Both the position numbers and the translations under genes were made by a program. A stretch of 64,000 nucleotides of DNA. Source: a virus. The notes beneath the pieces are model-generated. The model saw nothing but the letters and a program-made list of their open reading frames with translations. It searched no databases and was not told the DNA's origin. Numbering within the stretch: position 1 is the first letter of the stretch; every line of letters begins with the position of its first letter. Shown piece after piece: positions 26,561-43,141 of this stretch. The stretch covers positions 32,001 to 96,000 of the IMG/VR virus record IMGVR_UViG_3300032893_000005; one strand, written 5' to 3'.

Positions 26561-27229
26561 GTGAAGATAACCTGCCTCTCAGACACACACATGCGCCTCG
26601 ACAAGGTCCCTGCCCTTCCGGGTGGGGACACGATCGTTCACTCTGGTGACTTGACCGGTCGCGGTGAGATCTGGGAGATGGAGCGAGAACTGAAGAAGTT
26701 AGGGGACCTTAAGAAGCGGTACCAGTATGTTCACTGCATATACGTGGCCGGTAACCACGACTGGCTTGCCTTCCGTGATCAGACTAGGGTACGAGAACTT
26801 TGTAAGAAGAACGGCATCATCTACCTCCAAGACGAAGAAGTGACCCTCGACGGGGTAAGGTTCTACGGCTCTCCGTGGCAGCCTGCCTTCTGCGGATGGG
26901 CATTTAACCTCCCACGCGGCGAAGCCTTAAGGAAGGTATGGGATCAGATCCCCACCAATGGCATAGATTACCTTATCACTCACGGCCCACCTTATGGTAT
27001 CCTGGACGAGGTCGTTAAGGTTGATGGAACCTCTTACCACCCGCCGGAGCTTGTCGGATGTGCTGACCTACTGAACAGACTGCTTCACGTTAAGCCGAAG
27101 GTTCACCAGTTTGGTCACATCCACTGCGCTTCTGGCGAGAAGACGTTCATGGACATAAAGTTCATCAACGCGAGCATGTGTGATGAGATGTATATGGTAA
27201 CCAATCCGGTAAGGGAAGTAGAGATCTAA
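26561..27229 (+). CDS. metallophosphoesterase (MPPED/239FB-like)
   Basis: SDTH, HSGDL, AGNHD, THGPP and FGHIH. Confidence 0.9.
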   Translation: MKITCLSDTHMRLDKVPALPGGDTIVHSGDLTGRGEIWEMERELKKLGDLKKRYQYVHCIYVAGNHDWLAFRDQTRVRELCKKNGIIYLQDEEVTLDGVRFYGSPWQPAFCGWAFNLPRGEALRKVWDQIPTNGIDYLITHGPPYGILDEVVKVDGTSYHPPELVGCADLLNRLLHVKPKVHQFGHIHCASGEKTFMDIKFINASMCDEMYMVTNPVREVEI

Positions 27230-27232
27230 TCC

Positions 27233-27736
27233 ATGAGTAAGACGATACCGCTCACGAAAGGATACGTGACTGTCGTTGACGATGAAGATTACGATATGCT
27301 CATGCAGTGGAAGTGGCAAGCGCGGCCAACCAGAAGTAGTGGAAAGTACATCAGAAACAAGACTGATGTTTATGCTGCCAGAACCGGTAAAGATAAAGGC
27401 CGGTCGTATCCAATCCTCCTACATCGACTGATTATGGGCTTCCCAGCCTGCCAGGTAGACCATAAAAACGGCAATACTCTCGATAATCAAAAAACCAACT
27501 TAAGACTGTGTACAAACTCTAGTAACCGGGCCAACAGCGCGAAGATGTCTGGCAGATCGTCTAGCTATAAAGGTGTCACTTGGGACAAAAATCGATCAAA
27601 GTGGAAGACTGCTATTAAAGTAAATGGTAAGATGATTAACGCAGGTCGGTTCGACGACGAGATCTTAGCAGCTAAAACATATGACGAACTTGCATTAAAG
27701 TACTTTGGAGAGTTTGCTAAAACAAACTTTAAGTAA
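27233..27736 (+). mobile_element. free-standing HNH-AP2 homing endonuclease
   Basis: LHRLIM..VDHKNGNTLDNQKTNLR plus AP2 domain YKGVTW...AAKTYD; AT-richer than flanks. Confidence 0.9.
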
Positions 27737-28519
27737 ATGACGAAGCCGGTCGCTCTAATAGGAGATGTTCATGCGATACCTGACGAGTTTCAGGAACTCC
27801 TGGCATGGATCAACGATCAGGGCATCCCAAATAACAGGATCTGGGTCCTCGGGGACTTGTGGGATCGCGGTCCTGACTCGGGAGCGATCAGCCGCATCTG
27901 TCGTCAGCGCGGGATCAACTCGATCTTGGGAAACCATGAGCAGTCGATCATCAACCGCTGGTCTGCCAAGGTCAAGGGTAACAAGATGCGTCATCCGAAC
28001 CCCGACAAAGAGCGCACGATCGCATCAGTTACCCAGGAAGACATCGACTGGGCTTCAAAGCTACCGCCTATCCACATCTTCGACGACTTGAAGCTAGTCA
28101 TAGCCCACGGCGGCGTCTGGCCCCGCATACCGTTCTACAAGCAGCCCAAGAACGTCATCAGGGCTCAGATGATCCAGGCATGGAACCCTGGACCGTCGAG
28201 GTGGTGGGGTCCGCAGGCTAAGGCGGGCAGCGGATACTCAGAAGAGGAGTCCTACGCTCAGGGCTGGAGGCGATGGTACGAGGTCTACGATCACCAGTAC
28301 GACATCGCGTTTGGCCACAGCGTCTTCCAGCAGCCTCTTATCTATAAGAATCCAGGCGCCGGGACCGTGTTCGGCTTGGATACCGGCGGAGTATTTGGTG
28401 GTTGTCTGACCGGCATGATATACTACGGAAAAGGCGAGTACCACATCAAGCAGGTGACGGCGAAGAAGGTGTACTGCCAAGACATGAACAAGCAGTTTGG
28501 GGTCGACGATGAAGGATAA
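27737..28519 (+). CDS. PPP-family phosphatase / Ap4A hydrolase (PrpE/ApaH-like)
   Basis: GDVH, GDLWDRGPDS, GNHE, HGG, FGH and LDTGGVFGG. Confidence 0.88.
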   Translation: MTKPVALIGDVHAIPDEFQELLAWINDQGIPNNRIWVLGDLWDRGPDSGAISRICRQRGINSILGNHEQSIINRWSAKVKGNKMRHPNPDKERTIASVTQEDIDWASKLPPIHIFDDLKLVIAHGGVWPRIPFYKQPKNVIRAQMIQAWNPGPSRWWGPQAKAGSGYSEEESYAQGWRRWYEVYDHQYDIAFGHSVFQQPLIYKNPGAGTVFGLDTGGVFGGCLTGMIYYGKGEYHIKQVTAKKVYCQDMNKQFGVDDEG

Positions 28520-28967
28520 GATACACGTAGACATCAACACCCAAGAGCGCATAGTCCTGTGGAACGACCAGGCGGTCTTCGTAGACTGCGACGACACTAT
28601 GATCTTATGGTCTTACCCGGAAGGCATCGACACGCGGCACTTAACCCATGCCAAGGATGTTCATGGAAACGATACGTTAGTATTCTTGAATCATCAACGC
28701 CACATAGACTTCGTAAAGCGCCTGTACAGGCAGGGCGTAATGGTCATCGTATGGAGCGCAGCCGGAACACGCTGGGCAGACCATACCGCCGACATCCTAG
28801 GACTTGATGGCTTCGTGACGGTGACCATGTGCAAGCCGAAGTTCATGCTGGACGATCTGTCAGCCGACAAGTTCATGCCTAAGAACACGTTCCTTGATCC
28901 TTTTAATCCTATGAAGGACAAGGACGAGGACAACCGCTTCCACACGGATGGCAAAGATGAGCCGTAA
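28509..28967 (+). CDS. HAD-family phosphatase
   Basis: VDCDDT, WSAAG, KP and DD motifs. Confidence 0.75.
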   Translation: MKDKIHVDINTQERIVLWNDQAVFVDCDDTMILWSYPEGIDTRHLTHAKDVHGNDTLVFLNHQRHIDFVKRLYRQGVMVIVWSAAGTRWADHTADILGLDGFVTVTMCKPKFMLDDLSADKFMPKNTFLDPFNPMKDKDEDNRFHTDGKDEP

Positions 28968-29193
28968 GCTCCGACCGCTTGGTCAGGTAACCCAGGACAT
29001 GGAACCCCTCCTGTTCGAGATGTGCGACGATCATGACCTTCAGCACGGGGAGATCCTTGGCCTGGTCAAGGCTTGGCTGGACATCCACTACCCGGCTGGA
29101 CGCGAAGAGTACGTTGACGGCAGTGGACATCCTGTGGTAAAGATCGTAGAGTATAGGCCTGTAACACAAACTCCTAAGGAGAAGAAAAAATGA
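28948..29193 (+). CDS. hypothetical protein
   Basis: Collinear ORF. Confidence 0.6.
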   Translation: MAKMSRKLRPLGQVTQDMEPLLFEMCDDHDLQHGEILGLVKAWLDIHYPAGREEYVDGSGHPVVKIVEYRPVTQTPKEKKK

Positions 29194-29618
29194 AGAAGTT
29201 GCTCTTAGCGGCCATCGCCGCCGCAGTCGTCCTCGCAGGTACGGTGCAGTATGCCGCGTACCAAGTTGCTCACCAGTCGTACGTCACCCAGCTCACCTCG
29301 AAGGAGCAGTTGACGAAGAGCCTTCAGGATCTTCAGACTAGCAAGCTCACTACGGCTCTAATTCTTGTCACCAGCGGCGACAAGGAGATGGAAGCTATGT
29401 TCAAGGCATCGGCTAAGAAGTACCACGGCAAGATCTTGTTCTTGGAAGTCGATCCTTCTAAAGTTCAGGAAGCCTCCGTTGGCGAAGACCCCGCAGTGGT
29501 GGTCGTCGACAAGGTCGTCGGCCTGCAAGTTCTGCGCGGTAAGGCGCCGAGCCAGCAAGCCCTCGACAACGTGATCGAGCAGCTACTCGCCATCAACGGA
29601 CAGTTCCAGCGTAAGTAG
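29190..29618 (+). CDS. exported thioredoxin-fold protein lacking CXXC
   Basis: Signal peptide; KYHGKILFLEVD...PAVVVV thioredoxin-like pattern; no Cys. Confidence 0.5.
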   Translation: MKKLLLAAIAAAVVLAGTVQYAAYQVAHQSYVTQLTSKEQLTKSLQDLQTSKLTTALILVTSGDKEMEAMFKASAKKYHGKILFLEVDPSKVQEASVGEDPAVVVVDKVVGLQVLRGKAPSQQALDNVIEQLLAINGQFQRK

Positions 29619-30056
29619 ATGAAGATCATCTTCGTCGGCTGCAATCCTTCTCCGAAGAACGCGGACAGTCGGGTACCCTTCGTAGGTACCCGTTCTGGCT
29701 CCATCTTCTTTCGGTGGACGGAAGAGCTTGGTCTGAGCCGGGACCAGTACGAGATCATCAACGTGTCGAGCAAGGTGACCAAGTCGTCGGCTCAAGTCAA
29801 GAAGTCAGACATCTCTCTGGAGCAGGTCGCGAAGGCGATCTTGCTCTTGTCTGGCAAGAAGACGAAGATCATCACTCTAGGAACTATGGCCGCCTGGGCT
29901 CTCGAGCAGCTCAAGATCGACCACTTCTCGCTACCTCACCCGTCGGGGCTTAACCGCAAGCTCAACGACAAGAACTTCGCGAAGGAACAGTTACGCCTAT
30001 GCAAGAAGTACCTAAGAAGCGATTCGACTTCGGATTCGGCGAAGCCGTCTGCGTAA
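29619..30056 (+). CDS. uracil-DNA glycosylase superfamily protein
   Basis: FVGCNPS, PFVGTRSG and LPHPSGLNR. Confidence 0.85.
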   Translation: MKIIFVGCNPSPKNADSRVPFVGTRSGSIFFRWTEELGLSRDQYEIINVSSKVTKSSAQVKKSDISLEQVAKAILLLSGKKTKIITLGTMAAWALEQLKIDHFSLPHPSGLNRKLNDKNFAKEQLRLCKKYLRSDSTSDSAKPSA

Positions 30057-30985
30057 GAGAAGTCCTCGCTAACTTCTATACTCCGCACATGGGAGAGCAC
30101 AACACGATCCTCTCGGTTCGTGACATGGGTTATCCGGGCACAGGCCCCGGACTCCCAGAGCTGATCGAAGACACCCGCAGCGTCATACGTGACGAGACGG
30201 GCTACAACTACAAGCATGTCCTGATTACGGCTGGAGCTGCTCAAGCAATCATCGTTGCCGTCAAAGCACTGTCTCTGAGCGACTGCACGTTTGTCAGGTA
30301 CCACGAGCCGTACTTCTCTCACTACCCGTCATTGATAGAGATGGCCGGGGCCAACCCGGTCCCGTTCGCGGACGACGCAATCGAGTACAGGGACGAGGTC
30401 CGTCTGGTTGACTCTCCGTCAAACCCTGAGGGGAAAACACGACTCGACGACTGCGACATCTGGGATGCTACGTACGCGAACCGAATCTACAGCAAGCTCC
30501 ATGCTGCTAATCCTAAGCATAAGATCATGATCGGCAGCTTCGGGAAGCTGCTTGGACTCAACGGCGTTCGCCTTGGGTGGATCGCAACAGATGACTCGTA
30601 CTTGTTTGATAAGATGGTTGACATAAACTACCACATGACCCTAGGCGTGAGCGTTCCCTCTCAGCGGCTCGTCTCGAGCATCATAGAGAACGTAGAGATG
30701 GGTCAGTTCACTCAAGAAGCGGCCTTACAGATCGACTGTAACCGCGAGGAGATGTCAAAGCTCGAGTACTTGTCTGGAGACGATGAAGTACCATCAAGCG
30801 GCATGTTCTACTGGGCTTCCATGGACTCGAAGGCTCGCGGCCTACTGAAGATCGCGGGAGTTAAGTGGATAGAAGGGACTGACTGCGGCGGGACAGAATA
30901 TCACTTAAGGTTAAACCTTGCTCAGTCAAGAAAGCTCACTCAAGAGATGGTGAGGGCGGTCAGGAAGCTCGATGGAAAGAAGTAG
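29999..30985 (+). CDS. fold-type I PLP enzyme, alliinase/tryptophan aminotransferase (TAA1)-like
   Basis: GAAQA, SPSNPEG, WDATY, SFGKLLGLNGVRLGW (PLP Lys), LGVSVPSQ and LRLN. Confidence 0.8.
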   Translation: MQEVPKKRFDFGFGEAVCVREVLANFYTPHMGEHNTILSVRDMGYPGTGPGLPELIEDTRSVIRDETGYNYKHVLITAGAAQAIIVAVKALSLSDCTFVRYHEPYFSHYPSLIEMAGANPVPFADDAIEYRDEVRLVDSPSNPEGKTRLDDCDIWDATYANRIYSKLHAANPKHKIMIGSFGKLLGLNGVRLGWIATDDSYLFDKMVDINYHMTLGVSVPSQRLVSSIIENVEMGQFTQEAALQIDCNREEMSKLEYLSGDDEVPSSGMFYWASMDSKARGLLKIAGVKWIEGTDCGGTEYHLRLNLAQSRKLTQEMVRAVRKLDGKK

Positions 30986-31493
30986 TCACAAGTACGTACT
31001 AGCAAGCGCTATCGCCCATGCGCTGATCTTCCTGTCGATGTCTCCGATGCATGGATGTGTGACCGGCAGTAAGGGCGCTGCGATGAAGATGGCGAACGGT
31101 GCCCAGTCAGGCGTTAAGCACGTAGAACATGTAACCGTTGACCTGATCACCGAGGAGATCAAGGATAAGAAGACTGACGAGGGGAAGACTAAAGACAAGA
31201 AGCCAGGCCTTGTCACTGAGCCCGCAAAGATGGTTCACGAGAACGACGACTGCAAGCGCTGGTTTGGCGGCATAGGCATCACAGTGACCAACCTTAATGC
31301 CCTAGGCGTCGAGATCTTGAAAGTTCACCATGGGTATCCTGCCGAGAGAGCAGGTCTCATGGCCGGAGACGTGATCATCCACGTGAGTGACAGGGAGATT
31401 CGCGGAGAGGTTGGAACTGAGGTTACACTGACGGTACTCCGAAGCGGAGCGCCTATCATGTTTACGATGCTTAGGGACAAGATCTGTTATTAA
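30972..31493 (+). CDS. TonB-like TM anchor plus C-terminal PDZ domain
   Basis: LASAIAHALIF TM segment; FGGIGI...PAERAGLMAGDVI...GTEVTLTVLR PDZ. Confidence 0.75.
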   Translation: MERSSHKYVLASAIAHALIFLSMSPMHGCVTGSKGAAMKMANGAQSGVKHVEHVTVDLITEEIKDKKTDEGKTKDKKPGLVTEPAKMVHENDDCKRWFGGIGITVTNLNALGVEILKVHHGYPAERAGLMAGDVIIHVSDREIRGEVGTEVTLTVLRSGAPIMFTMLRDKICY

Positions 31494-31495
31494 AT

Positions 31496-31924
31496 ATGGC
31501 ATATAACCCTGAAAGCAGTAGAAAGTGGTATCAGAAAAATCGCGAAAAACGACTCGCAGCGATGCTGGAGAGGTATCAAGACCCTGAAGTAAAGAAACGA
31601 AAACAGGAATATGACCGTCAAAGGCGACAGCGCCTGAAGGATGCAGGAGAAAAACAGTTTTCAGAAGCTCAGAGGCAGACCCACTACCGAAAACGGTACG
31701 GTATAGATATAAATATTTACGAAAAAATGTTAGAAAGTCAAAACGGCTGTTGTGCTATATGCGGGACGGCTCAAGCAGAATTAAAGAAAACTTTAGCCGT
31801 AGACCATTGTCATGTGACAGGCAGGGTGCGCGGTCTTTTATGTGATCCATGCAATAAAGGTTTAGGTTACTTCAGAGATAGTTTAGAGATTATGAGTAGG
31901 GCCATAGATTATCTTAAGGATTAA
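31496..31924 (+). mobile_element. endonuclease VII-family homing endonuclease
   Basis: QNGCCAIC, VDHCHVTGRVRGLLCDPCNKGLG; AT-rich. Confidence 0.9.
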
Positions 31925-33155: not shown

Positions 33156-33373
33156 AGACTAGAACGCCCGCAAATAATCGCAAGAACTTTCGTCGCGCCC
33201 GCGCAATCAAGCGCTTAGAGGCTCGACTTAAGCTCTCTGACTCGGAGATCTTTAAGATCGCCAAGTCGCTCAAGCCCGGAACAAACGACGGCATCGTCGA
33301 CTATCGTAAGAGGATGAACGACGAGCTGGAGCGTACGAAGAAGATTCAAATTACAAAGGGAGGAAACCTATGA
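33152..33373 (+). CDS. small basic protein
   Basis: Translationally coupled ORF. Confidence 0.55.
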   Translation: MKTRTPANNRKNFRRARAIKRLEARLKLSDSEIFKIAKSLKPGTNDGIVDYRKRMNDELERTKKIQITKGGNL

Positions 33374-34077
33374 AAACAGTAACTTACCTATCACTTCTGA
33401 TCGCCATGATGATGCTGGCCGCTTGCGGTCGCATGGAGAGTACCGACTACGTGGCTGGACCACAGGGACCAACTGGTCCGCAAGGGCCTCAGGGACCTGC
33501 TGCACCCGCTCCGACGCCGAGCGCTATCCAGCAGATCGTCGACTCTGAGAACGCTTACCGCGCTACTCTGGGCGAAGCTCCGCTTACTCCGGGTCTATCG
33601 TGCCAGGTCGTTGCCGTAGCTTCCGGCACGTACCTGTCCAGCTCGAGTCCGGGATACACTGCCGCACAAGCGATCGTCACGACAGGACCGACGTACTCGT
33701 ACCTCTTGTCGACCTCGATCAACCAGGCTAACGTGGCGGGAACTGCAGGCAACAGCCTCATCGATCCTGAGATTCGTCCACTGTTCTTGAACAACAACTA
33801 CCGCATCGTGTGCACGGGCCAACTGGTAGTGGCAGAAGACGGATACTACGGGTTCTCAACGTCTTCTGACGACGGGTCGCTCCTGTACATCGACGGAACA
33901 CTGGTCGTAGACAACGACGGAGCCCACGGCATCCAGACCGTTTCAGGAACCAAGCTGCTCGAGGCTGCCGTCACGCACTCCTTCACCTTATACTACGCGG
34001 AGAGCGCTGGCGGTAACATAGCGATGGTCTTGAACATGGACGGTTCTGTCTTGACTGCAGACCACCTCTACCACTAA
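33370..34077 (+). CDS. lipoprotein with short collagen-like repeat and PA14 domain
   Basis: Lipobox LAAC; GPQGPTGPQGPQGP; SDDGSLLYIDG..VVDNDGAH. Confidence 0.85.
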   Translation: MKTVTYLSLLIAMMMLAACGRMESTDYVAGPQGPTGPQGPQGPAAPAPTPSAIQQIVDSENAYRATLGEAPLTPGLSCQVVAVASGTYLSSSSPGYTAAQAIVTTGPTYSYLLSTSINQANVAGTAGNSLIDPEIRPLFLNNNYRIVCTGQLVVAEDGYYGFSTSSDDGSLLYIDGTLVVDNDGAHGIQTVSGTKLLEAAVTHSFTLYYAESAGGNIAMVLNMDGSVLTADHLYH

Positions 34078-38406: not shown

Positions 38407-38677
38407 GTTCGAGACAGACGACTACGAGACCGCCCATGCCCTGTGGAACACGATGTACCATAACTTTGGTCGCATCGGTCCGTTCAAGTGCGATGGTATG
38501 GCAGTCAGTCAGCAGCATAAGAAGATAGACATCTTCGCGCTCGAGCCTTCTGAGATCGTACCTCGGAAGTACCAGGTAGAGATCCACAACTTTCGATACA
38601 GTCCGATTACGTGGACTGAGCGTAAAAATAGGTTTAAGAAAAGGATGAAGAGATGGATGTCGAAATTGCTTCGCTGA
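38396..38677 (+). CDS. hypothetical protein
   Basis: Collinear ORF. Confidence 0.55.
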   Translation: MNLKFETDDYETAHALWNTMYHNFGRIGPFKCDGMAVSQQHKKIDIFALEPSEIVPRKYQVEIHNFRYSPITWTERKNRFKKRMKRWMSKLLR

Positions 38678-39501
38678 CGTACCCAGGCTTCTCGAAGAAG
38701 TTCGTCGATAGCTTGAAGAACACCGGCTTCGCGGTCGTAACTGGTCATGAGATAGACCCGAGACAGCTCTCAGATGCGTACAAGCTCTGGGGCAAGTTCT
38801 TCGACCAGCCGCTCAAGAAGAAGATGGCGCTCCTTTACTCGAAGGAGACCCATGGCGGCTACTTCCCGATGAAGTCGGAGAAGGCAAAGGATGCGAAGGT
38901 CGGTGACCTGAAGGAGTTCTACCACTGGTATGACCACTTGGAGCATGGCGAGGATGACCTTAACTGCTCAACCTGGTCACTCCGATACGACTTGCTCAGT
39001 CTTGCCACGAACCTCTTAAACAAGATCGAGGATGAGCTGCGCCTGCGCAACGTGAAGATGAACTCGACTGAGGATCTCAGCAACATGATCTACGGAAGCA
39101 GGCAGACTCTGTTCAGGATCATACACTATCCACCGATCAAGGATGTCGAAGTCGAAGAAGGCGCTACTCGCGCTGCGGCTCACGAAGACATCAACCTGCT
39201 TACACTGCTTCCTGCTGCGACAAACTCGGGCTTGCAGGTTAAGGATTCGATGGGCGTCTGGCACGACATCCACGCAAACCCGGACATGATCATCGTGAAC
39301 GTCGGTGACATGCTGCAAGAGGTTACCGGCGGTTACCTCAAGAGCACGACCCACCGCGTGGTGGTCGACGTCAACTCGACCGCCGAGAGCCGATACTCTA
39401 TGCCCCTGTTCTTACATCCGCGCCCGGAAGTTCGCCTGAGCGATCGCTACACGGCCAAGGAGTACTTGGCTGAGCGCCTTAAGCAGTTAGGACTCGCCTG
39501 A
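38653..39501 (+). CDS. 2-oxoglutarate/Fe(II) dioxygenase (IPNS/PcbC family)
   Basis: HEDINLLTLL, GLQV, NVGDML, STTHRV and RYS motifs. Confidence 0.93.
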   Translation: MDVEIASLTYPGFSKKFVDSLKNTGFAVVTGHEIDPRQLSDAYKLWGKFFDQPLKKKMALLYSKETHGGYFPMKSEKAKDAKVGDLKEFYHWYDHLEHGEDDLNCSTWSLRYDLLSLATNLLNKIEDELRLRNVKMNSTEDLSNMIYGSRQTLFRIIHYPPIKDVEVEEGATRAAAHEDINLLTLLPAATNSGLQVKDSMGVWHDIHANPDMIIVNVGDMLQEVTGGYLKSTTHRVVVDVNSTAESRYSMPLFLHPRPEVRLSDRYTAKEYLAERLKQLGLA

Positions 39502-40571
39502 TGCGTACGTTGATCAAGGTCAAGTTTGGCTCTCACCTATATGGTACCAGTACGCCGGAGTCCGACCTGGACTTCAAGTCTGTGTTTGTTCCATCAGGCC
39601 GCGACATCTTACTCGGCAGATACCCTAAGACCAGCATCAACGAGTCGACCAAGAAGGACAACGACGTCAAGAACACGTCTTCTGACGTCGACAGCGAGGA
39701 CTTCTCCCTGAACGGGTTCATCCGGCTCTTATCTGAAGGTCAGACGGCAGCCTTGGAGATCCTGTTTGCTCCTGACGACATGATCGTCGAGATGGACCGT
39801 GAGTGGGCACTCTTTCGCGACAACGCTCATAGGCTAGTCCACAAAGACGTGACCGCGTTCTTCGGGTATGCTCGCCAGCAGGCCGCGAAGTACGGCCTAA
39901 AGGGGTCCAGGATCAGCGCTATCCGTCGCGTGATGGAGTACCTTGACCAGTTCAGCGAAGATACTAAGCTGCAAGTACTGTACGACGCTGAGAGCGTAGT
40001 TCCACGGGACAAAGGCCTAAGGTCTTTCGTAGAGAAGAACTCAGACTTGAAGCTCGACGAGAGCGAACCGTTGATAAAGTTCACGACGAACAACTACGTT
40101 CGCAACGGTCAGCAGTGCGAAGAGACGTACTTCGAAGTTTGTAACCGCAAGATCCCGCTCCACAACAACGTCAAGCATACGAAGCAGGTCTTCCAGCGCG
40201 TCTGGGACGAATACGGCAAGCGTGCACGTCAGGCTGAGACCAACGAAGGAGTCGACTGGAAGGCCTTGTCACATGCCGTCCGTGTTGGGAAGCAAGCTTT
40301 AGAGCTTCTGACTACCGGTAGAATCACGTTACCACGCCCGGAAGCCGCAACTCTCCTTGCGATCAAGAAAGGTGAGCTTCCTTACAAGGAAGTTGCCAGC
40401 CTAATCGAAAGCTTGCTTGAGGAACTCAAGATCGTTCAGAAGGAGTCTACGCTTCCAGCCAAGTTTGACTCTGCGCTGGGCGAAGACCTTCTACTTCACT
40501 TCTACGAGATGGCCGTCTTGGACGCCGGTGAAGCCGACCAGCTTGCAAACATGAGGAACGTGTACCCGTGA
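39501..40571 (+). CDS. Pol-beta superfamily nucleotidyltransferase (RlaP-like)
   Basis: FGSHLYGTSTPESDLD; DWKALSHAVR...LLAIKKG. Confidence 0.85.
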   Translation: MRTLIKVKFGSHLYGTSTPESDLDFKSVFVPSGRDILLGRYPKTSINESTKKDNDVKNTSSDVDSEDFSLNGFIRLLSEGQTAALEILFAPDDMIVEMDREWALFRDNAHRLVHKDVTAFFGYARQQAAKYGLKGSRISAIRRVMEYLDQFSEDTKLQVLYDAESVVPRDKGLRSFVEKNSDLKLDESEPLIKFTTNNYVRNGQQCEETYFEVCNRKIPLHNNVKHTKQVFQRVWDEYGKRARQAETNEGVDWKALSHAVRVGKQALELLTTGRITLPRPEAATLLAIKKGELPYKEVASLIESLLEELKIVQKESTLPAKFDSALGEDLLLHFYEMAVLDAGEADQLANMRNVYP

Positions 40572-40723
40572 CCAAAGACGACGTCCGTTTTCTAATCTTG
40601 ATGATGGCGCTCGCGTTTGCGATCATGATGGTCGCTTGCACCAAGAAGACGACTAAGGTCGATGACTTTGGCATGTGCATGATCCCGCACACAGACGTGA
40701 AGCCGCCTGAGGAGATGATGTGA
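40568..40723 (+). CDS. small lipoprotein
   Basis: Manual translation; hydrophobic leader ending MVAC. Confidence 0.5.
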   Translation: MTKDDVRFLILMMALAFAIMMVACTKKTTKVDDFGMCMIPHTDVKPPEEMM

Positions 40724-41313
40724 AGTACGTGATTTTTCTTGATATTGATGGTGTCCTTAACAGTCGCGGGTACTTCTACACCGACCTCAAGTACCGCGAG
40801 TACGAGAAGGCGATGCCGGACATGGCGCACCGCGTTGACACCAAGCGGTTCATGCGACTTAACCTGGACCCGTCTGCCGTCAGGAACCTAAGGTTCCTCC
40901 TTGAGAAGTTACCAGAAGACAAGGAGATCTGGATCTCCTCTAGCTGGGGAATGGCGTTCTCTCTGGCCGAGATCAAGTCTGCCTTGAAAGTTCGCGGCCT
41001 CGGAGAGTTCGTCAAGTACGTGAGAGACGTTACCCCGCGCAAGATGTCATCGTGGAGGTGTAACGAGATCGGGTGGGCTCTGGAAGAGGTCGCCGAGACG
41101 TACAAGGGACCTGTACGGTGGGTATCGATCGACGATAACCCGCCGCTCCCGCAGAACTACCTTGAAACCGTCATCTACCGCAACAAGATGTTCAAGGTCG
41201 AGTACAACCCCGAGTTCACGACTAGCAAGCAGAACGGCTTGACCTATACTGATACGCTCGATATACTGACCATGCTTGTTCCAGGATTCAAACCTAAGAT
41301 GGAGCCGTTATGA
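40720..41313 (+). CDS. HAD domain protein (Swiss-army-knife RNA-repair-like)
   Basis: FLDIDGVLN, ISSSW, R..EI, SIDD and GLT. Confidence 0.8.
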   Translation: MKYVIFLDIDGVLNSRGYFYTDLKYREYEKAMPDMAHRVDTKRFMRLNLDPSAVRNLRFLLEKLPEDKEIWISSSWGMAFSLAEIKSALKVRGLGEFVKYVRDVTPRKMSSWRCNEIGWALEEVAETYKGPVRWVSIDDNPPLPQNYLETVIYRNKMFKVEYNPEFTTSKQNGLTYTDTLDILTMLVPGFKPKMEPL

Positions 41314-41564
41314 AGTACATCACTGCCTCAGAGCTTAACAAGGTTGAGCAGAAGCTGATCGATGACCCAGTAGAAGCGCTTGCCGTCGTTCGCATGGCGA
41401 AGGTCCGCTTCGGGTTCTGCAACACGTTCCTCGACTTCACGAGCGAGAAGATCGCGACTACTTCGTTTGACTTCCTGAAGTCCCTCGGCTTCAAGGTTCG
41501 CTACTACGCCGAAGGCGGTAAGAAGGCGTACCGGGCAACAAAGACGTTAGAAGTTCAGTGGTAA
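41310..41564 (+). CDS. small hypothetical protein (L..LGF.V...W family)
   Basis: Translationally coupled ORF. Confidence 0.6.
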   Translation: MKYITASELNKVEQKLIDDPVEALAVVRMAKVRFGFCNTFLDFTSEKIATTSFDFLKSLGFKVRYYAEGGKKAYRATKTLEVQW

Positions 41565-41574
41565 GGAGAATCAT

Positions 41575-41847
41575 ATGAAGCGCGGTTACGAGATTGGATC
41601 TGGCCGGGTGATCTACCAGATTACTCGCACGAAGACTGAAGACGGTAAGCTCATCATCACTGAGATGCCTGTGTTTCGCGGCAGCCCCGAGAAGCAGGCA
41701 CGCGGCATGATGAAGGCTCATACGCCCGCCGGTGCGCTGGCGATCGTCGACAAGCTCTTGTCGAAGGACACGTTCTGGCTCAACGTCCGAAACTACATCA
41801 TGAACCGAATCAAGGAAGCTGGCGAGAAGAAGGTATCGAATAAATGA
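41575..41847 (+). CDS. hypothetical protein
   Basis: AAGGAG RBS. Confidence 0.6.
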   Translation: MKRGYEIGSGRVIYQITRTKTEDGKLIITEMPVFRGSPEKQARGMMKAHTPAGALAIVDKLLSKDTFWLNVRNYIMNRIKEAGEKKVSNK

Positions 41848-42587
41848 AGAAGTGGAGAAAGTGGACTTCAGAAGAAGTTTCTTTCTTAACTGAAAATTAT
41901 GGTAAGGTGACGACTCAAAGCATAGCATCTGCTCTTGGCAGATGCTGGAGTTCAACTTATGCCAAAGCCGTACTTCTTAAACTTACTAAGCCTAAAGCTC
42001 CTGTTCAGATAGGAGAAAAATTAGGTAGACTTCTTGTCTTGAAAGTTTCTGATAAAAAATCTACGTCTCATGCCTTATTTTTCACTTGTCAGTGTGATTG
42101 CGGGTCTATTGTTGATGTAAGGGCGGCGCAATTAAGGAACGGACGCACAAAATCTTGCGGTTGTTACACTGTCGAACAAACCCAAAGGGCGCTTAGGATG
42201 GCTCCAGGGCAGACTTCATATAGAAGCCTGGAGCGAAGAACTAAAGTGTCTGCACGAAAGAGGAACCTGGAATATAATTTAACTACAGAACAGTTCATGA
42301 GTTTGGTCTGCTTGAGCTGTCACTGGTGCGGTCAAGAACCGGCCCCGTACAATGTATATATGAAGCACGATGGCACCTTCAGGCCAACGAATAGTGTCAC
42401 TATTGGATGGGCTCGACAGCAAACAGTATTTGTGAACGGAATAGACAGAATAGACAGTAGCGTCGGATATACGATAGAAAACTGCGTACCGTGCTGTTCC
42501 ATGTGCAATTTAATGAAACTAGATTATAGCCCAGAGCAATTTTTGAATCAAGTTAAGAAGATCGCTGAACATAAAGGCATTGTATGA
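41844..42587 (+). mobile_element. HNH homing endonuclease
   Basis: CQCDCG..TKSCGC; CHWC; GIDRIDSSVGYTIENCVPCCSMCN; AT-rich. Confidence 0.88.
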
Positions 42588-43141
42588 CCCATGTTATGAT
42601 AGACCTAGAAACATTCGGTAACTCGCCCGGCTGCGCCTTCGCCTCCCTTGGAGCCATAGAGTTTGACCCAGAGACCCGCAAGAAGGGGCGATCGCTGTAC
42701 CTCGTCATCAACAAGGCGAGCTGCGTCGCCAAGGGCCTCACTCTTGACCAAGACACAATCAACTGGTGGGCTACTCAGCCCGAGGAAGCCCGGTCTGTGC
42801 TTGCCAAGTCTGAGTCTGAGAAGGTCGGAGAAGACAACGTCACCCTAGAAGGCGCACTGATAGCTCTCACTTACTTCCTCAAGGAGTGTGGGGATAACGT
42901 GAAGGTGTTTAGCTGCGGGGCAGACTTCGATTTACCCCTCATGGTGTACGCCTTCAAAGCCTGCGGCCTAGAAGTGCCGTGGAAGTTCTGGAACAGCCGC
43001 TGCTTTCGTACCTGGAAGAGCCTGGCCCCATGGGTGAAGGCACCCGCCGGTGCCGTCGCACATAACGCCTTGCAAGACGCATCAGACCAAGTCGATCACC
43101 TCTTTGCCATTGCAACTAACCTGAGACTTAAGATAAGATAG
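42584..43141 (+). CDS. DEDDh 3'-5' exonuclease (RNase AS/ExoVIII-like)
   Basis: MIDLET, GADFD and HNALQDA. Confidence 0.88.
   Translation: MTHVMIDLETFGNSPGCAFASLGAIEFDPETRKKGRSLYLVINKASCVAKGLTLDQDTINWWATQPEEARSVLAKSESEKVGEDNVTLEGALIALTYFLKECGDNVKVFSCGADFDLPLMVYAFKACGLEVPWKFWNSRCFRTWKSLAPWVKAPAGAVAHNALQDASDQVDHLFAIATNLRLKIR

Follow-up and report, generated by a model that had tools for sequence, protein, structure and literature searches.

We detected an intact gene for a pyridoxal 5'-phosphate (PLP) enzyme in a 64,000-nucleotide stretch of DNA from an uncultured wetland phage (hereafter the window), corresponding to bases 32001-96000 of the 154,091-bp IMG/VR virus record IMGVR_UViG_3300032893_000005, estimated to be 94% complete. 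The complete catalytic set, the confident fold and the dimer model suggest that the product is very probably an active PLP enzyme working on an alpha-amino acid. We suggest that it is a stand-alone homodimeric amino-acid aminotransferase encoded by an accessory metabolic gene, a reading that we consider somewhat probable. The open reading frame (ORF) 29999-30985 was proposed in an initial annotation of this DNA and its 328-residue translation holds all motifs quoted there, namely DMGYPGTGPGLPEL, GAAQAIIVAVKALS, PYFSHY, LVDSPSNPEGKTR, HKIMIGSFGKLLGLNGVRLGW and DKMVDINYHMTLGVSVPSQ. The phage origin assumed in that annotation agrees with the virus record and with its synteny to Myxococcus phage Mx1.

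According to Pfam, the protein belongs to Aminotran_1_2 (PF00155; 4e-16, 59.6 bits versus a cutoff of 19.7), and the same model matched all 10 further family members tested with 50-96 bits. The AlphaFold model, built from 29 homologues, had a pLDDT of 91.9 and a pTM of 0.91; Foldseek and VIA-align placed it in the class-I aminotransferase fold, with Z of 29-32 over ~310-320 residues for about 50 entries of this fold. All predicted catalytic residues were present in the window protein, and none was conserved in fewer than 95% of the 142 family representatives examined: Lys183 is predicted to form the Schiff base, Asp156 and Tyr159 to contact the pyridine nitrogen and O3' (Asn142 also at O3'), Ser180 and Arg191 to hold the phosphate, Tyr45 to reach into the site of the partner subunit and Arg304 to bind the alpha-carboxylate. 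An N-terminal EGF-like domain was absent, with no further Pfam match at E <=0.1 and the catalytic domain beginning at about residue 10.

The homodimer modelled with PLP reached an ipSAE of 0.90, versus 0.00 for the best of three controls, with a partner pLDDT of 91 and 100% contact agreement across runs. The mark applied to ipSAE was passed by 20 of 30 proteins solved as same-chain pairs and by one of 23 proteins solved as single chains. The modelled interface takes in residues 43-46, 78-82, 185-191 and 212-221, with the Tyr45 loop and the GVSVPSQ helix forming part of it, as in canonical aminotransferase dimers. The high score may therefore stem from resemblance to dimers of this kind that have been solved.

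The initial annotation suggested a likeness to plant TAA1 and alliinase beyond the generic fold-type I motifs, and sequence comparison with solved proteins supported this for TAA1. In a single-sequence search of 177,635 distinct PDB sequences, TAA1 (3bwn) was the top solved protein (1.4e-7). Two profiles, A1 for the clade of the window protein and A3 for its sister clade, were run on the PDB sequences. TAA1 was first with A1 (84.3 bits, 9.6e-23), followed by an archaeal aminotransferase (62 bits) and alliinase (55 bits), the alignment covering the PLP domain only. With A3, TAA1 reached 144 bits over nearly its full length, including the C-terminal GxxCG...R.S region, ahead of the Thermotoga aspartate aminotransferase (AspAT; 106 bits), alliinase (~97-98 bits) and the Thermus AspAT (93 bits), whereas the best cellular match to A3 in 131 genomes of one bacterial phylum was 82 bits. 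Far lower scores were obtained for the 1-aminocyclopropane-1-carboxylate (ACC) synthases, namely 25-26 bits for A1 and 41-49 bits for A3.

No clustering with HisC or CobD, which would speak against the TAA1 likeness, was detected. The CobD model TIGR01140 gave 44.9 bits versus a cutoff of 290.55 and the HisC model NF002878 gave 19.4 versus 374, while the PDB sequences of HisC and CobD matched A1 at 8e-5 to 1.4e-4, versus 9.6e-23 for TAA1. The best NCBIfam match was the cyclodehydratase GntC (65 bits, 5.1e-18), and all NCBIfam matches were far under their cutoffs. Since the HisC, CobD and GntC models fell so far short, the protein was not grouped with these enzymes.

The phage protein and TAA1 (3bwn, 3bwo; PF04864) share the S-x-x-K-x-x-G...R-x-G-W and GVSxxSQ motifs and the lack of an EGF domain, and most members of the window clade have Thr at the TAA1 GSTQ position. 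The TAR1 and TAR2 proteins also have no EGF-like domain, which is present in the alliinase/TAR3-4 subclade (PMC10015382). In contrast, the identity between the two proteins is ~19-20%, the phage protein is viral, ~60 residues shorter and has Ala81 instead of Thr, and no auxin-pathway partner was identified near its gene. Garlic alliinase (1lk9, 2hor), of the same Pfam family as TAA1, scored 55-98 bits with the family profiles; it differs as a C-S lyase with an N-terminal EGF-like domain, and it ranks under TAA1 and, with A3, under one AspAT. The class-Ib aspartate/aromatic/prephenate aminotransferases (Thermus thermophilus 1bjw, Thermotoga TM1255 1o4s and Pyrococcus aromatic aminotransferase 1dju; PF00155) resemble the phage protein in fold (Z ~30-31), catalytic residues and full-length alignment, and their dicarboxylate-binding Lys is kept in the sister viral clade. 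They are, however, cellular proteins of 370-400 residues scoring 22-38 bits under TAA1, and the Lys is missing from the window clade.

The Pfam and structural comparisons did not separate these groups. Alliinase_C (PF04864) matched the window protein at 3.8e-15 (56.1 bits versus a cutoff of 22), over model positions 65-250 of 363 only and slightly under PF00155, so that in the comparison of Alliinase_C with Aminotran_1_2 both models were over cutoff and nearly equal. PF00155 was the better model in seven of 11 members tested and PF04864 in four, and PF04864 also matched in two control archaeal genomes, Methanocaldococcus and Sulfolobus. The VIA Z was 32.1 (3bwo) and 31.8 for TAA1, 31.4 for garlic alliinase, 30.5-31.1 for ACC synthases and 30-31 for many AspATs, values that are tied when rows no more than one unit apart are treated as equal. 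Several motifs regarded as TAA1 features, SPNNPxG and PYWxSYP among them, are also generic to class-Ib AspATs. Because the Pfam scores are about equal and the structural Z tied, we describe the family as TAA1-like, with a possible tie to the alliinase class; membership in Alliinase_C is not demonstrated. Overall, the initial interpretation is partly supported.

These ties leave space for a possible, although doubtful, alternative, in which the TAA1 likeness is superficial. The family would then have arisen by reduction from ordinary aspartate/aromatic aminotransferases of class Ib and would not be specially related to the eukaryotic alliinase class. The Pfam ranking, the archaeal control matches and the tied Z are consistent with it, as are the earliest-branching viral clades, which carry an AspAT-type Lys at position 81 in a tree rooted with 17 bacterial aminotransferases. 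The sister-clade consensus (GEPxF, NGAKQAL, PYWPSYP, SPNNPDG) presumably resembles the Thermus AspAT sequence and was counted on the same side. The profile ranking argues against such an origin: TAA1 exceeded every solved bacterial or archaeal aminotransferase by 22 bits with A1 and by 38 bits with A3, in the latter case over nearly the whole length.

In the FastTree analysis of the 142 family representatives, with the bacterial aminotransferases as outgroup, the viral family formed one clade (support 0.92), with two Lys-81 lineages branching first and a large Thr-81 clade of 106 representatives containing the window protein. Because the outgroup is small, the rooting is tentative. Position 81 aligns with the Lys of the GGKQAL motif of class-Ib AspATs and with the Thr of TAA1 GSTQ; we take this Lys to be Lys109 of the Thermus AspAT, the residue that contacts the substrate's distal carboxylate. 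The residue is Thr in 63 of 104 members of the window clade and Ala in the window protein itself, whereas 32 of 38 members of the sister clade have Lys. This suggests that the sister clade may handle Asp/Glu-type substrates and the window clade something neutral or aromatic.

Under the reading as an aminotransferase, the ORF would give a stand-alone homodimeric PLP enzyme of class-I aminotransferase fold, in a clade that has plant TAA1 as its nearest solved relative. The enzyme would transaminate a free amino acid/2-oxo-acid pair in the infected cell and would be expressed, as the product of an accessory metabolic gene, alongside replication and proteostasis genes (ClpP, deformylase, GroEL). 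Since the Lys for dicarboxylic substrates is lost at position 81, the preferred substrate of the window clade is probably neutral or aromatic, as with TAA1. An amino-acid auxiliary metabolic role was one of two roles suggested in the initial annotation; it stays the best reading, albeit an inferred one.

Several points weigh against this assignment. C-S lyases (alliinase), ACC synthase, decarboxylases such as CobD and cyclodehydratases such as GntC use this fold and these residues too, so transamination is the commonest outcome of this architecture rather than a demonstrated one. The substrate argument at position 81 depends on the presumed Thermus AspAT Lys109 and on an alignment. The 61 loci compared contained no metabolic partner gene favouring any pathway.

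The main functional rival, which we consider unlikely, is that an enzyme of the same fold and clade acts on a free amino acid by PLP chemistry other than transamination: a C-S beta-lyase of alliinase/MalY type, with pyruvate, ammonia and a reactive sulfur species as products, ACC-synthase-like cleavage of S-adenosylmethionine (SAM), or a cyclodehydratase or decarboxylase. Cleavage of SAM would fit phage anti-restriction by SAM depletion. The Z of alliinase and of the ACC synthases, tied with that of aminotransferases, the alliinase scores with the family profiles and the GntC match as the best in NCBIfam are consistent with such chemistry. On the other side, with both profiles alliinase ranks under the AspATs and TAA1, which is a true aminotransferase, and ACC synthase falls far behind them; moreover, every NCBIfam match, that to GntC included, is under cutoff. 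A pair of ACC synthase and ACC oxidase was considered and rejected: the DIOX_N-type 2-oxoglutarate (2OG) oxygenase of this phage (38653-39501, ~8 kb downstream) accompanies the PLP gene in only two of 25 phage records carrying it, and it recurs at 51-52% identity in only two related phages.

The second role suggested in the initial annotation, in DNA base modification, was based on a 58-nt overlap of the PLP gene with an upstream gene of the uracil-DNA glycosylase (UDG) superfamily. The overlap was found as described, with the two genes in different frames and a clear PF03167 match. The family-conserved N-terminal motif FDFGFGE, with a nearly invariant G14, begins at nt 30026 inside the UDG ORF, and no alternative start of the PLP gene is found before Met31; we consider for these reasons that the overlap is genuine and not a wrong-start artefact. 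An AAGGA element precedes the ATG by 11-15 nt. In the UDG protein, motif A reads V-G-C-N-P-S-P and motif B reads L-P-H-P-S-G. With Asn in motif A and HPS in motif B, the protein may be closer to SMUG1-type (family 3) glycosylases than to the family-4 type with GE(A/G)PG, although its only matches were to the Pfam superfamily and, weakly, to family 4. SMUG1-type glycosylases excise 5-hydroxymethyluracil too.

The linkage to the UDG gene is not conserved in relatives. A PF03167 match was detected in only four of the 25 phage records with the PLP gene. The two genes are adjacent only here; the distance is ~2 kb in G004 and ~7 kb in G021, and in G011 they lie far apart. A match to a ThyA-type dUMP/dCMP hydroxymethylase (PF00303) was not found in the 94%-complete genome. 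The PLP decarboxylases known from thymidine hypermodification (gp52 of phage M6 and gp226 of ViI) are likewise phage-encoded PLP enzymes, but they have a tryptophan-synthase-beta-like fold, whereas the window protein is of fold type I; they act on amino-acid-decorated DNA and always occur with a P-loop 5-hydroxymethyldeoxyuridine (5-hmdU) DNA kinase and helix-hairpin-helix aGPT-Pplases, not with UDG (PMC8989533). The context of 5-hmdU DNA kinase and aGPT-Pplase was not seen here, although these two families were not searched by accession.

We consider it very improbable that the PLP enzyme and the overlapping UDG-superfamily protein act together in DNA base hypermodification, for instance on a nucleobase-linked amino acid that would be trimmed or transaminated. 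Co-transcription implied by the overlap, the UDG-superfamily genes lying within several kilobases in G004 and G021, and the participation of PLP enzymes in thymidine hypermodification (PMC8989533) are in its favor. The rarity of the UDG gene among PLP-bearing records (far off in one of the four), the other fold and other partners of the known hypermodification enzymes (PMC8989533) and the missing ThyA-type hydroxymethylase all argue against it, as does the conserved Arg304, which points to a free alpha-carboxylate. Given the lack of conservation of the UDG link, the failure to find a ThyA-type hydroxymethylase and the different fold of the known enzymes, a base-modification role is unsupported, and the suggestion drawn from the overlap was not borne out. 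The overlap itself is probably a result of compact phage gene packing, a local accident with no functional coupling.

The family is very large and was found almost only on phage and metagenome contigs. A word-indexed search gave 15 close clusters, every one metagenomic and with proteins of ~320-340 aa, and a search with a core-domain alignment for longer relatives, covering 428-2000 aa, gave no match. When 1.84 billion representatives were searched exhaustively with a profile, there were 328 matches (50% identity) at E <1e-30 and 2775 at <1e-10, and nearly all of the best 150 matches were 300-346 aa long. With the sister-clade profile, at least 3472 clusters at 90% identity were detected at E <=1e-5. 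Neighbouring clusters in the ESM-Atlas were 83-99% viral. In IMG/VR, the gene was found on contigs of about 30-480 kb, and its carriers are Mx1-like phages of 100-180 kb and jumbo phages of 270-480 kb. A motif scan built on the alignment A1 of the window clade and run on one genome per species for 185,579 prokaryote species detected three true members only, in two metagenome-assembled genomes, all with the same phage-type neighbour genes.

No close homologue was detected in GenBank phages, the nucleotide search of the region being empty and the protein search giving 23-25% identity only, and in PHROGs an unannotated family was matched, weakly and over part of its length. No homologue of the PLP gene was found in the Mx1 record with a search model for which no known positive had been run; since the gene is absent from Mx1, it is likely to be accessory. 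Source names of family members are automatic only, for example 'aspartate/methionine/tyrosine aminotransferase'. Our literature searches found no description of the family, nor of a relevant phage or viral aminotransferase or alliinase.

In a survey of 90 species, the alliinase/TAA class was mainly confined to plants and plastid-bearing protists and had no prokaryotic counterpart (PMC11214133), and there is no agreement on how TAA-dependent auxin synthesis arose (PMC5611494, PMC4754409, PMC4667067). A virus-restricted family of thousands of compact, apparently active enzymes with TAA1 as the closest solved relative would be a missing non-eukaryotic reference point in this debate, and it is also a widespread phage accessory enzyme. 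A stronger and more speculative hypothesis, which we consider quite unlikely, is that the compact phage clade and the eukaryotic TAA/alliinase class are true sister groups, or that the phage clade is a relic of the ancestor or vector of that class in the prokaryote world. In soil and wetland bacteria under infection, its Thr/Ala-81 members would then transaminate aromatic amino acids (e.g., tryptophan to indole-3-pyruvate). The evolutionary interest belongs to the whole viral family and not to this window, for which the extra claim of a coupling to UDG and DNA modification does not hold. Members of ~320-345 aa are also small for the class-I aminotransferase fold, typical cellular enzymes having 370-420 aa, and may interest enzyme engineers.

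In the 61 loci, the PLP gene lies at the end of a conserved replication/proteostasis block (RecA, primase, DnaB-type helicase, ClpP), the order of which is shared with Mx1. Its immediate neighbours differ in almost every relative, and the small ORFs downstream of it are unrelated to one another across relatives. The PLP gene has no fixed partner gene and no metabolic partner emerges from the context. Three genes are recurrent but non-obligate neighbours: ClpP (31 loci), a CYTH-like ExExK protein (19 loci) and, in jumbo phages, an aminoacyl-tRNA synthetase. The ExExK protein (190-245 aa; at L005:5222-5794 and in 14 other loci) is, replication genes aside, what most often adjoins the PLP gene in relatives; by eye its N-terminal ExExK motif is CYTH/triphosphate-tunnel-like, and one member gave no Pfam match. 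It was rejected as a partner, its gene in this phage being ~79 kb away at genome positions 140629-141360, outside the window.

In jumbo relatives of 128-480 kb, a class-II aminoacyl-tRNA synthetase of Asp/Asn/Lys type (tRNA-synt_2 6.7e-82 and an anticodon OB domain) is encoded directly upstream of the PLP gene. Loci with this gene are L049 (6133-7743), L051, L052, L053, L054-56 and L059, and genes for a SpoU methylase, Amidohydro_2, DUF3228, LemA and TPM phosphatase are found nearby. The synthetase was likewise rejected as a fixed partner, since neither the window nor the close relative L064 has it.

Features of the PLP gene and of the two genes that overlap it in the window
Feature	Position	Strand	Evidence and remarks
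UDG-superfamily gene, 145 aa, upstream; a neighbour, not a conserved partner	29619..30056	+	PF03167 4.8e-13, 49.8 bits; weak match to family-4 TIGR00758, 1.1e-4
Overlap of the UDG and PLP reading frames, 58 nt, offset 2	29999..30056	+	ORF coordinates
Compact fold-type I PLP enzyme gene (phage-restricted TAA1-like clade of class-I aminotransferases)	29999..30985	+	ATG-started ORF, 328 aa; PF00155, PF04864, AlphaFold model, TAA1 top by profile, VIA Z
Ala81 codon; equivalent of class-Ib AspAT Lys109 (dicarboxylate recognition) and of the TAA1 Thr (GSTQ)	30239..30241	+	Alignment; predicted dimer interface next to the active site
Lys183 codon, predicted PLP Schiff-base lysine (S180-F-G-K183)	30545..30547	+	142/142 representatives; aligns with TAA1 TFSKITG; codon checked
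Arg304 codon, predicted alpha-carboxylate-binding arginine (RLNLAQ)	30908..30910	+	141/142 representatives; aligns with TAA1 VRVS and the AspAT R-x-S motif; codon checked
Membrane-anchored PDZ-domain gene, downstream, 14-nt overlap with the PLP gene	30972..31493	+	PDZ_2 3.1e-9; not conserved beside the PLP gene

Mx1 is the nearest isolate to the source phage (DnaE 32% identical, shared gene order). The phage DNA is present in contigs of two wetland metagenomes, and the sequences are identical over the PLP gene; no RNA data set was listed among the sequencing runs containing it. A long block syntenic with Mx1 occupies window positions 427-28519 (+) and encodes GroEL, an SbcC-like ATPase, DnaE polymerase, RecA, primase, DnaB, an AAA ATPase and ClpP, then a subtilase and a peptide deformylase. 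The ribonucleotide reductase genes of Mx1 were not found among the scanned ORFs of this phage. From ~28497 to 31924, each gene abuts or overlaps the next and the genes look like one tightly packed accessory operon; scans for promoter and terminator consensus gave no signal above shuffled expectation. The PDZ protein encoded downstream of the PLP gene has no protease domain, and in none of the 60 other loci compared does the PLP gene have a homologue of it as a neighbour.

An HNH/AP2-like ORF at 27233-27736 (+) lies between the calcineurin-like phosphoesterase genes 26561-27229 and 27737-28519; its homologues adjoin the PLP gene in loci L013, L018 and L021, which fits a mobile homing endonuclease. 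The gene at 33370-34077 (+) encodes a probable lipoprotein, in which a PA14 domain (7.3e-12) and a short collagen-like stretch, GPQGPTGPQGPQGP, were detected. At 38653-43141 (+), the gene of the plant/IPNS-type 2OG-Fe(II) oxygenase (DIOX_N and 2OG-FeII_Oxy) is followed by genes for an RlaP-type nucleotidyltransferase and then an Rv2179c-like 3'-5' exoribonuclease.

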